A stretch of 64,000 nucleotides of DNA, from positions 44,888,001-44,952,000 of the forward strand of contig OZ024751.1 of assembly GCA_964016885.1 (NCBI GenBank), given 5' to 3'. The position numbers were made by a program, and so were the translations under genes. Under the pieces are notes generated by a model. It made no database searches. It saw only the letters and a list, made by a program, of their open reading frames with translations, and was not told the DNA's origin. Source of the stretch: Eledone cirrhosa. Its lineage: Eukaryota. Positions 24,393 through 27,882 of this stretch are shown here, piece after piece (positions within the stretch are counted from its first letter, which is position 1; every line of letters begins with the position of its first letter).

Positions 24393-24483
24393 ATATATAT
24401 ATATATATATATATATATATATATATATATATATATTCGATGATATTAAATAAATGGAAACTATATTTATAAAACCATATTTA

Positions 24484-24540
24484 TTCTATTATATATATTT
24501 CAAGGGTACCAAAACTTTGGTACGCTTTCATCAGATAAAA
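24484..24540 (-). ncRNA. Minimal hammerhead ribozyme at the PLE 3' end
   Basis: uuuuau-CUGAUGA-aagc guaccaaaguuuugguac ccuu-GAAA-uauaua-UA-auagaa. Confidence 0.8.
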
Positions 24541-25675
24541 TACAAAGTTTGTTTTATAAATTTTGACATAACCAAGGAAAAATACCTTAACAGGTCAAGT
24601 TTTCCTTGGATAGTGAAGGGATAAGAGAAGAAAAGTCAGATATTTCAAATTATTAAGATGAGTATGCAAATGAGGTTGAGGTATACGGCTGAAAAAAAAC
24701 GTTATTTTAGACGCTATGCAGAATTTAAATAATTAGGAAGAAGAAAAAAGAAAGAAGAGCTTGTATTTACGTTAATTTAGATGAATTAACAATTTGGGGG
24801 AAATGGTGGAATATGATTCCAAAATTTTAATTTATTTATCTATATTATGAGTTATAATATTGTATATATAATCAATTAGATTATATGAAGAATTATGGTT
24901 GTAAGTATATTTTATCTTATTACATTAAAATAGGTAATAAGTATCTATATATATTAATAATTGTGCATGTATAAGTATTATAGAAATAGAAATAATTTAC
25001 AATTATTAGTTCTTTATATTTCTATTATGAGTTACGAAGGAAGTTGATTTTGCATTTTACATAAAAAAAACAGGTGATTCAAGTTGTAAGAGGAGAACAA
25101 TTTGTAGATTCGAATATTTTGTTCTAACATTGAAAATGATTTCAGAATATTGTTAATTTATAGAAGTTATATAGTTTATCGTACATATTATTATAATATT
25201 TATGTTTGCACAATTGAAAAGGGAAAGATAATCTTGTTTGTTAGCCGTTAAATTTGATGAATGGTTTACTCAGAAAATATATAGTGAAAATTATATATTA
25301 TTTTGTGTGAGATTAATTATTTTAGTCGAAAGATGTGTAAAAGTTTGAAGATCGAAAGGAGAGGAAAAACGTAATGTGCATTTCGAATAACTATCGTAAA
25401 GAGAATAAATTTTCAGAATGTCAATTAAAGATTATCAATCTATATCTAAAAAAATAATGTCAGAAGTAAAAAATATAAAAAAATACAAAATATATATATA
25501 TTAATATATATATTTTAAAAAAAATATATTAAAAAAATATATATTAAAAAAATTTTAAAAATTAATGTCAAAAGGTAAAAATAGTAGAACTATTAATATT
25601 AGAAATATTTTTTAAAAAATTAAGAAGGAAGATTCTGTAAAAGAATATTACATTTAAATTTTAAAGAAAATAGGA

Positions 25676-26842
25676 TCATAAATTAAAAATACTTCTAAAA
25701 GTAGAATTTTGGCGATGTCTGCAAGAAGAAAATAATTCTGTTTTAAGATTAATAGAGTTTTGACAATTAATTATATAAAAAAATTCCTCGATACACAAGT
25801 TACAGAATCTTGAGAAAGCCATATTTCGGTATGCAGGTGCTTTCGAAATCCTTCTCCAAGATATTGAATAGTCTATATTGTTGTATTTTAAGTTCCAAAT
25901 TAAATGTGAAAGTGAAGTGGAAGATTTTTTATCGGATCTCTTAAATGTGTGTTTATGGTTATTTCAGCGTTCTTTGAATTTTGTAGAAGTGGCACCAATA
26001 TAGTTAAATACTTTGTCCCTTGTTTTAACTGTGCATTTATAAATTACGTTTTTGTCTAAGCAATTATTTTGTAAAGGGCAGTTTGATTTAATTCTACAGT
26101 TACATTTTCTGGAGTTGTTGTTCAGAACGGTACTATTATTCTGAATATTGTTGTTAGAAATATTATTATTATTATTTTGGTTAGTTTGATTAGGGTTTAA
26201 ATTTAAGTTTCTATTATTAATCCTATTTATATTTTGTGCTATGTTCATAGTAGTAGAGTAGGATAGTTTTATAGTGTGTCTGTTAAAGATAGAGTGGTAT
26301 CTGTGGGCTTTAAAAAAACATTTATCTAGTGCTTTAAAGAATAGCTTTGCTAAAGGTATTTTAACGCTTAATGAGAATGGGGGAGAGTACCAAATAATAT
26401 TTCTAGTTTTTTTGTTTGGTTTAGTGTTAAATTGTTTATTATTATTATAATTAATTCTAGGATGATTTGTCATGTTATTGTTATCTATGTATTTATTTTT
26501 TTTATTCGAGTATCCTGCTCTATATAAAACTTCATTGTAATATTCTGCCTTATCATCAAAAATATTTTTATTAGCAGAGATGCGTGAAATCCGTTGTTGG
26601 AGGCTATTGACAATAGTGTTTTTAATACTTCTAGGATGATTAGAATTGAAACTTACGTAATTTAGATTTTCGTTAATTTTATGGAAAGGATAGTAAAGAC
26701 CTGTGCTAAGGTTTAAGGTTACATCTAAGAAGTTAACAATTTTGTAGTAATTCTCTATTTCTAACTTAAGATTGTAGTTGTTGAAAAATTGTATTGTGGA
26801 TTTCCTTTTCCAATCAATTTCACTATTGCTATAGTTTTCAAT
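25676..26842 (-). pseudogene. PLE ORF remnant: RT C-terminus/thumb, Cys motif and GIY-YIG endonuclease, with an in-frame TGA at 25964-25966
   Basis: VNFLDVTLNL..YV...SNHP..I..IIWYSPPFS..CNCR..CPL..CL..VIYKC..YIGAT..FKER*NNHK..LS..IW.LK..CNLC..E..CRH; the frame stays open past the TGA to the stop at 25676. Confidence 0.9.
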
Positions 26843-27882
26843 ATTATACTCCAGAAAATCTGTCGAGTGCTCTGAATCAGTTATAATCATTTATATTTGT
26901 TGAATTACCAACAAATTGAATATCCCTTTTGCTTATATATATATATATATATATATATATATATATATATATGTATATATATATATATATATATATATAT
27001 ATATATATATATATATATATATATATATATATATATATATATATATATATACATATATATATATATATATATACACACATATATATATTTATATATTATA
27101 TACATTTATATATATATATATATATATATAAACGTTAAAACCGTCTTCCTGCTATATCAAGCGTTAACCTAATATACCCCTTCCATATACTGTACCGATT
27201 GTGTTGTTATTTCTGTTTACCTTTTACATATATATATATACATTTGTTTGTGTGTCTGTGTGTAGTCGTGTGTGTGCGTGTGTGTGAGTGAGTGAGTGTG
27301 TGTGTGTACATACACCTTGATAAATGACTATACGCTAAGAGTACAAGCGCTTAAACGATAAAGACGTATACACGTACATACATTTATATATGCATATATA
27401 CATAGATACATAGTAGTTTATATACTATACATATATATATGTATATATATATATATATATATATGTGTATATATATATATATACATATGTGTGTGTGCGT
27501 GTGTACGTCTATATATATATATATATATATATATATATATTAGGTCCGTTCGTCTTCGTTAATCGGTAATTGTTTCCCAATTGTACTTTATATATGTGAA
27601 ACTCATGCTAGTCCCGTCAACTTATATATATATATATATACATACATATATATATATATATATATATATATATATATATATATATATATATATATATATA
27701 AATATATACATACATATATATATATATATATATATATATATATATATATATATATATATATATATATACATACACACACACACATACACATATATATATA
27801 AATATATATATATGCATAAATATATATATATACATATGTGTGTGTGTGAGTTGTGTGATCTACGCGTAAACGAGATAAGTAC

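Follow-up and report, generated by a model that had tools for sequence, protein, structure and literature searches.

A conserved bulged hairpin near the copy ends of Hydra-clade Penelope-like elements and a head-to-head remnant in Eledone cirrhosa

Two features of Penelope-like elements (PLEs), which form the sister group of telomerase, still lack an explanation: the choice of the site where reverse transcription begins and the one-sided tail of their copies. The only in vitro study of PLE initiation concerned one element of another clade. The question is raised by a locus at positions 24437–26933 of a 64,000-nucleotide stretch of Eledone cirrhosa DNA (assembly GCA_964016885.1, contig OZ024751.1, positions 44,888,001 to 44,952,000 of the forward strand), which we call the window. 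The locus is almost certainly a dead, 5'-truncated Hydra-clade PLE copy inside a (TA)n repeat, and in itself it is an ordinary dead copy. Comparison with related loci revealed a bulged hairpin that is very probably real and tied to the ends of copies. We give a probability of roughly 0.6 to the reading that the head-to-head copy arose as both nicked (TA)n ends primed reverse transcription at two start sites set by hairpins. In the literature searched, neither the duplication of this hairpin nor its match to tail-less as well as tailed ends was described.

The locus contained the following features, given in window coordinates:
24392–24436, no strand: (TA)n target repeat on the tail-less side, which would mask any target-site duplication
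24437–26842, minus: tail-less arm, a 5'-truncated Hydra-clade PLE with its 3' end outward
24482–24542, minus: type I hammerhead motif, found as a descriptor match
24543–25675, minus: AT-rich 3' region of about 1.14 kb
25676–26104, minus: linker with CxCX5C (26104–26078) and GIY-YIG endonuclease with CNLC (25804–25793) and CRH (25723–25715), no CCHH
26105–26842, minus: reverse transcriptase (RT) end and thumb with an Asn-rich linker, starting a few residues past the missing YRDDG motif
26840–26845, no strand: AATATT, a 6-bp palindrome at the head-to-head junction
26840–26933, plus: tail-only arm, antisense to the open reading frame (ORF) and the origin of 16 false N-terminal residues
26848–26871, plus: conserved bulged hairpin at the tail start, ACTC-CAGA-loop-TCTG-TC-GAGT-GCT
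26890–26921, plus: another, AU-rich tail hairpin, shared with the tail of a short element at 4996–5489
26934–27140, no strand: (TA)n target repeat on the tailed side

Two pieces thus lie head to head, a long minus-strand arm without a tail and a plus-strand tail of about 90 bp. An inverted 5' piece with a one-sided tail is a hallmark of PLEs and was present here; the (TA)n on both flanks matched the (TA)n insertion preference of the Hydra clade, and the surrounding window was microsatellite-rich animal sequence. A first-pass annotation had placed a tail-less arm end near 24437 and the fusion of a ~90-bp hairpin-bearing tail near 26843, and our analysis agreed with both: the arm stops at the (TA)n at 24437–24433, its exact end being ambiguous owing to the repeat, and the tail occupies approximately 26840–26933. 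The last five letters of the arm are the first five of the tail and fall within the palindrome, with no overlap between the two pieces beyond them, and AATATT is likely a microhomology at the joint. At its tail-less end, the long arm appears to stop 3–7 nt before the expected start of the first hairpin.

To describe the hairpin among relatives, we used 96 related loci, comprising 79 of 505 confirmed metagenome matches and 17 loci from prokaryote genome bins; the latter (L080–L096, 8 of them in one bin) are Hydra-clade PLE loci and evidently animal contamination. These loci contained 93 sense-strand and 10 antisense copies of the motif RCTC-stem-T(T/C/A)-GAGY-RCT, compared with 1.9 per strand in shuffles. 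Upper pairs 1–4, whose pairing was not demanded by the search, were paired in 84, 70, 62 and 48 of the 94 distinct sequences, and 0, 0, 0 and 2 of 2000 shuffles were as high; pairs 5–6 were not above chance. In an alignment of 43 relatives (of 44 candidates; L051, located inside an ORF, was dropped), 96% of the cells were paired with 46 two-sided changes, a level reached by 0 of 500 shuffles and compared with 23–60% in slid controls, although relatedness of the sequences inflates covariation tests. A covariance model built on the relatives only matched the hairpin of the locus with 24.8 bits (E 9e-4). The position of the hairpin was also regular: in 45 of 48 cases it followed the hammerhead core by 61–106 nt, a second copy came 61–83 nt behind the first in 16 of 16 pairs, and the hairpin start preceded the ATG by 33–69 nt in 26 cases. 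Tandem hairpins sit between the hammerhead and the ORF in relatives. By eye, three of six published novel Hydra consensi contained the hairpin, which stood twice before the ORF in Hydra-1_Ajap and occurred as variants in Hydra-1_Crog.

Copy ends were mapped by comparing sibling copies at least 92% identical, for which 14 reference loci (9 sequence clusters) yielded 36 junctions where one copy stops. Nineteen of these junctions fell 0–8 nt before a hairpin, namely 11 tail-less ends before hairpin 1 and 8 tailed ends before hairpin 2. The same near-hairpin intervals held 119 of 784 TAT/ATA sites (15%), compared with 53% of the ends (p 2e-7). Because only this minority of sites lies there, the peak of ends is not explained by TA microhomology alone.

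The window also contains short non-coding hammerhead elements, here called minis. The relatives-only covariance model gave 18 matches in the window, 13 of them with E<1, including 26842–26875 at the locus and 5401–5433. A tail of 58–88 nt ending in TA was carried by 15 of the 18, and 9 had an inverted partner (exact match), which ended 0, 1, 4, 5, 5, 7, 7, 9 and 14 nt before the hairpin. The mini at 4996–5489 is built as follows:
4996–5185, minus: tail-less arm that includes a hammerhead core (5095), stops 4 nt short of the hairpin position and is homologous to the final ~190 nt of the long arm of the locus
5193–5296, plus: interior between the arms, a 3' piece of a high-copy repeat resembling a short interspersed element (SINE)
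5291–5489, plus: tailed arm with a mutated hammerhead core at 5303, the hairpin at 5407 and a tail to approximately 5489

The first-pass annotation had stated that both termini of the locus align with this mini and that the two share a head-to-head architecture of arm plus tail, and both observations were borne out. Global alignment gave 83 identities in 100 for the arm (shuffle maximum 67%) and 61 in 83 for the tail (shuffle maximum 63%), while blast matched 24423–24573 to 4984–5142 (77%, E 1e-28) and 26844–26940 to 5403–5497 (74%, E 3e-9). Over the 90 nt upstream of the hammerhead, 59 positions were identical, with a shuffle maximum of 62%. Judged by identity (83% and 73%), this mini is a sister of the locus element; it could be a very short truncation product instead of a member of a non-autonomous family, and it is single in the window save for a tail-only fragment at 36991–37057. 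The tails of the other window minis were 52–61% identical to the locus tail, which is shuffle level, and these minis had only the hairpin and the hammerhead in common with the locus. Since hammerhead, hairpin, tail length and end rule are common to the minis and the coding remnant, Hydra-clade enzymes likely mobilise the minis, which would ride on them via the same hairpin. The earlier proposal that the remnant links the minis to an autonomous partner therefore stood in part: kinship with the mini holds, but the copy is not autonomous, lacking the RT core and carrying a TGA, and a mobilising partner is unproven at 83% and 73% identity.

We propose that the RT-endonuclease protein would bind the hairpins and start copying 0–8 nt 5' of each. 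A cDNA primed before hairpin 2 would carry the tail, one primed before hairpin 1 would lack it, and the tail would be the stretch between the two start sites; the two cDNAs would then be joined at their 3' ends via a short microhomology, often a palindrome. At the locus, the tailed cDNA seems to have stopped almost exactly where the other began, which would fit twin priming on one RNA. In L1 twin priming, the outer end of the inverted segment and the start of the other one are adjacent in the RNA, and the joint shows microhomology. The inversion point of L1 is variable, whereas that of the locus is fixed by a motif. For PLEs, the Poseidon protein was found in vitro to nick and extend both strands of AT-rich DNA and to initiate reverse transcription at two internal sites bracketing the tail (PMC11167929). 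Junction palindromes have been explained by self-priming on antisense RNA (Arkhipova 2013, PMC3846280), to which annealing of two cDNAs at the palindrome is an alternative. More tentatively, and with odds that we place a little below even, the duplicated hairpin may act as a ruler for start sites, with two RT subunits, each on one hairpin, priming from both nicked strands. If true, this would account for the tail of PLEs, for their head-to-head insertions and for the mobilisation of minis by a 24-nt cis signal.

Several observations weigh against priming at hairpin-set start sites. The hairpin was found in 56 of the 96 loci (many contigs were short) and in only half of the published consensi mentioned above; its lower stem was nearly invariant among relatives, the sole support for pairing there being a shift from G-C to A-U in the window minis, most of which have an A-U pair where the relatives have G-C. 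Hairpin 2 is absent from the present copy and is placed by comparison with relatives. Furthermore, 17 of the 36 junctions missed the near-hairpin intervals, with a range of -70 to +57. Some of these misses were three self-hits at tailed ends (52–57 nt past hairpin 1) and reciprocal duplicates, and two lay at -11 where masking had cut the match, which left true exceptions at -41, -27, -21, -20 and +15. The 36 junctions are not independent, ends that run into TA are ambiguous by several nucleotides, and genomic ends do not distinguish RT start sites from endonuclease cut sites. Finally, minis with overlapping arms and the locus L083, in which a tail-only inverted arm sits on a truncated ORF and both ends are tailed at the same nucleotide, need two templates or a second round of copying; therefore, twin priming on a single RNA is not general.

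Related arrangements were seen among the relatives. An antisense tail or hairpin was fused just upstream of the ORF in L083 (77–129 and 2007–2059), L002 (338–352) and L084 (731–746). In L086, L088, L042, L054 and L085, inversion breakpoints fell inside the ORF, and in L086 and L088 the end of the inverted arm overlapped the start of the direct arm by about 50–60 bp.

The end pattern itself would be the same if the hairpins guided the endonuclease and not the RT, with trimming of the ends, while the intermediate is resolved, at hairpins of either the cDNA or the donor. Craig 2021 ascribed the tail to 'EN-mediated resolution' (PMC8557442), and endonuclease recognition in D. virilis needed the tail (as cited in PMC11167929); nevertheless, we regard trimming as unlikely, since genomic ends coincided with RT start sites on the RNA in the sole full-length PLE assayed (PMC11167929) and since G-U pairs were present in the hairpin stems of the sense strand. 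A somewhat smaller chance is given to a history in which the locus was once a longer inverted repeat, either a fold-back or two long arms, and then lost the greater part of its tailed arm, along with the 5' ORF, to a deletion. In favour of this history, inverted repeats of great length are unstable, near-perfect fold-backs are frequent among the window minis, and PLE copies often show microhomology deletions (PMC3846280), but a later deletion would have had to break within about 5 nt of the tail-less end point, and the same coincidence would have had to recur at 24250–24392, a neighbour from another family that likewise consists of arm plus tail only.

It is also improbable that the hairpins serve assembly of the ribonucleoprotein, the promoter or translation of the ORF while ends are set only by pairing of TA primers with adjacent AU-rich RNA. 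Although hairpin 2 sits 33–69 nt before the ATG and TA-like microhomology occurs at many junctions, TA-like sites are widespread, with just 15% of them near hairpins as against 53% of ends, and the hairpin is kept in minis that code for nothing. The least credible account, to which we give a very small chance, makes the tail an independent short insertion beside a truncated PLE. A tail-only fragment does exist (36991–37057), and TA repeats gather nested insertions, such as the neighbour at 24250–24392; however, there is no TA between the tail and the ORF, the tail opens with the same five letters with which the arm closes, a single mini has neighbouring segments that match the arm and the tail, and the layout recurs both in that neighbour and in L083. 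The tail thus belongs to the element, as the first-pass annotation had assumed. Priming from both nicked ends at the two hairpins remained our preferred reading of the locus.

The Hydra-clade PLEs of PMC8557442, including Hydra-1_Obim and Penelope-13_HM, likewise have a C-terminal GIY-YIG domain without CCHH, the CxCX5C linker and CxxC/CxH, as well as a type I hammerhead near the 3' end and (TA)n targets, and Penelope-13_HM has an inverted 5'-truncated copy like that of the locus. By hammerhead sequence and 3' region, compared by eye, Hydra-1_Obim is a different family, and the ~1.14-kb 3' region of the locus is far longer than those of the published Hydra-clade elements. Published PLE insertions with an inverted 5' copy (PMC8557442, Fig. 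2; PMC3846280) have the same head-to-head arms, one-sided tail and junction palindrome, but their tails are 30–40 nt long compared with 58–88 nt in the window, and at the locus, unlike in those insertions, the tailed arm is the tail alone. Poseidon PAc (Frangieh et al. 2024, PMC11167929) shares two start sites bracketing the tail, AT-rich targets and priming on both strands; it belongs to another clade and initiates in an AC-rich stem-loop inside the ORF, whereas the Hydra clade has a duplicated bulged hairpin in the 5' untranslated region just 3' of each end. Non-LTR retrozymes (LTR, long terminal repeat; bioRxiv 10.64898/2026.07.22.740005) are also short non-coding hammerhead elements related to PLE ends, but they form head-to-tail tandem arrays, in contrast to the single head-to-head fold-backs with a tail in the window. 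We found the window minis to be inverted or single units with no head-to-tail tandem hammerhead repeats, and an identity as non-LTR retrozymes was rejected.

The pattern of inverted copy plus tail and the presence of Hydra elements in an octopus had already been published (PMC8557442), as had PLE-derived non-coding hammerhead elements (bioRxiv 10.64898/2026.07.22.740005). The word 'hairpin' is absent from the main text of PMC8557442, and no mapping of ends to a motif was seen there; a term search found nothing in the supplement text of PMC11167929, and no description of the hairpin was seen in passages of the octopus repeat paper PMC13282606. The literature searched, with older subscription papers and Repbase notes outside its scope, held no account of the covarying bulged hairpin, its duplication or its fit to both classes of ends. 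The hairpin is a defined cis signal that can be mutated. It can also guide the annotation of Hydra-clade ends and of non-coding minis, and it might furnish a minimal handle for RNA-templated insertion.

The coding remnant was examined in the minus-strand frame that runs from 26890 to the stop at 25678–25676 and contains one in-frame TGA (25966–25964), read as X for protein searches. The protein matched 58 longer proteins (677–880 aa, 29–40% identity, best E 4e-64) and 120 of similar length. A 701-position profile of the full-length homologues did not align before residue 19 (26836), on which its position 353 fell, and had no other match in the six frames of the window; because YRDDG is at position 344 and the match starts just past it, the copy keeps only the RT end, the thumb, the Asn-rich linker and the nuclease. 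This profile and the hammerhead descriptor agree with the earlier description of a PLE remnant with a minus-strand arm holding the RT end, GIY-YIG, a 3' region (put there at ~1.2 kb) and a hammerhead. The first 16 residues of the frame are located in the plus-strand tail, and MAFFT alignment put them on an upstream RT motif, a likeness equalled in 98 of 1000 shuffles. A real N-terminal protein was ruled out on this basis, and the residues are antisense tail, as had been proposed. The column of the TGA held Y in 35, F in 8, W in 4 and other residues in 11 of the 58 homologues, with Cys in none, which excludes a selenocysteine reading as in some Naiads; the TGA is therefore a nonsense change. 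With the RT catalytic core missing and an internal stop, the copy is not an intact active element.

The window protein contains CNCRIKSNC (a CxCX5C linker) at residues 263–271, CNLC and CRH, and a single Cys between VIY and YIG, with no internal CxxC and no CCHH. Among the 58 homologues, we found an RWK-type motif in 38, (A/S)DK(T/S/G) in 57, DKG in 1 and CxCX5C in 42, and CxxC between GIY and YIG in none; the RWK/DKT region falls in the missing N-terminal part of the window copy and was seen in homologues only. The Hydra clade is described as having the CxCX5C linker, no CCHH finger, CxxC/CxH around the catalytic E/N, RWK and DKT motifs, a hammerhead and (TA)n targets (PMC8557442). In contrast, Nematis and Neptune are defined by a CX2-5CxxC linker and a CCHH finger inside the GIY-YIG domain (PMC8557442). 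By its motifs the remnant belongs to the Hydra clade, the named Hydra sequences being compared by eye. The first-pass annotation had tentatively suggested a Nematis/Neptune-like clade, which was excluded, since the protein has neither the CX2-5CxxC linker nor the CCHH finger; that guess is explained by the Hydra linker being most like that of Nematis, according to Craig 2021 (PMC8557442).

Structural predictions were consistent with this placement. For the predicted structure of one full-length homologue (pLDDT 91), the top structural matches were TERT, and the predicted endonuclease domain of a relative (pLDDT 93.5) matched I-TevI with a Z-score of 8.5 and a root mean square deviation of 2.5 over 89 residues, followed by EndoII and UvrC. 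The endonuclease of the window protein aligned to the profile of its relatives with E 2e-39. A telomerase-related RT and a GIY-YIG endonuclease in one ORF, which define a PLE, are thus indicated by homologue models and alignments. The Pfam GIY-YIG model matched 10 of 57 endonuclease sequences below the cut-off; Pfam had no match on the window protein and little on five homologues, a Protein Data Bank sequence search with the protein gave one chance match only, and viral contigs contained no relatives. A sequencing-run search found part of the stretch in 5 listed data sets, none with half its words and no RNA set among those listed, and was uninformative on expression.

The hammerhead on the minus strand comprises an 8-bp stem I (24542–24535/24489–24482), the core (24534–24528), stem II (24527–24502), GAAA (24501–24498) and a short palindromic stem III, with a predicted cut after 24490. 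Hammerheads with a short palindromic stem III are reported to act as dimers (PMC4209133). The descriptor matched 12 times in the window and not once in any of 100 block shuffles, and a sense-strand hammerhead was found in 68 of the 96 related loci. Rfam detected neither the hammerhead at 24534 nor those in five related loci, nor anything meaningful for the tail; of its 372 matches on the whole window, the 150 listed were only chance matches of microRNA type, located on palindromes and simple repeats. The distance from stop to hammerhead was 33–322 nt in 70 relatives, and the ~1.14 kb observed here is 3–30 times longer. This 3' region (24543–25675) had no blast match in the 96 loci and no long ORF. 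As has been described in Adineta Pen1, it may represent host sequence that was captured.

The remaining minis and repeats of the window showed further variation. One high-copy family (4613–4810, 14235–14428, 15076–15146, 24250–24392, 36065–36175, 51561–51752 and 62820–63010) has the tail hairpin and a tail of 72–74 nt. In its full copies the fold-back point is shared and resembles hammerhead stem II; GAAAC and stem III are kept, with no CUGANGA core. The member at 15076–15146 has lost all of the tail but its final 14 nt. Two other copies, at 32877–33175 and 13513–13675, have a common 5' start. Such shared 5' ends, seen in the minis at 13513 and 33013 and in the repeated fold-back family, fit true non-autonomous mini families. 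In 32877–33175, a short inverted tailed arm starts at the second base past the predicted hammerhead cut (33135/33136), with an ACATGT palindrome at the joint; this single case is a hint of hammerhead cleavage in vivo. Additional unrelated hammerhead minis, either fold-backs or single arms, carry the bulged tail hairpin at 15853–16376, 42940–43266, 63086–63373, 52020–52370, 37088–37380 and 48276–48410. Near-perfect palindromes beside TA repeats, in which no tail hairpin was detected, lie at 52438–52846, 35498–35949, 49261–49367 and 14514–14615.

The SINE-like repeat, of which the mini interior at 5193–5296 holds the 3' ~105 nt, had 20 blast matches in the window. Longer copies have a tRNA-like head by eye, which ARAGORN did not find. 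The 3' end of the piece at 5193–5296 overlaps the adjoining tailed arm by 5 nt, which is what a template jump would produce. The window also contains three ~95% identical 3' fragments of a long interspersed element (LINE), at 9759–10336, 37567–38258 and 55463–56127, which may be of RTE type.

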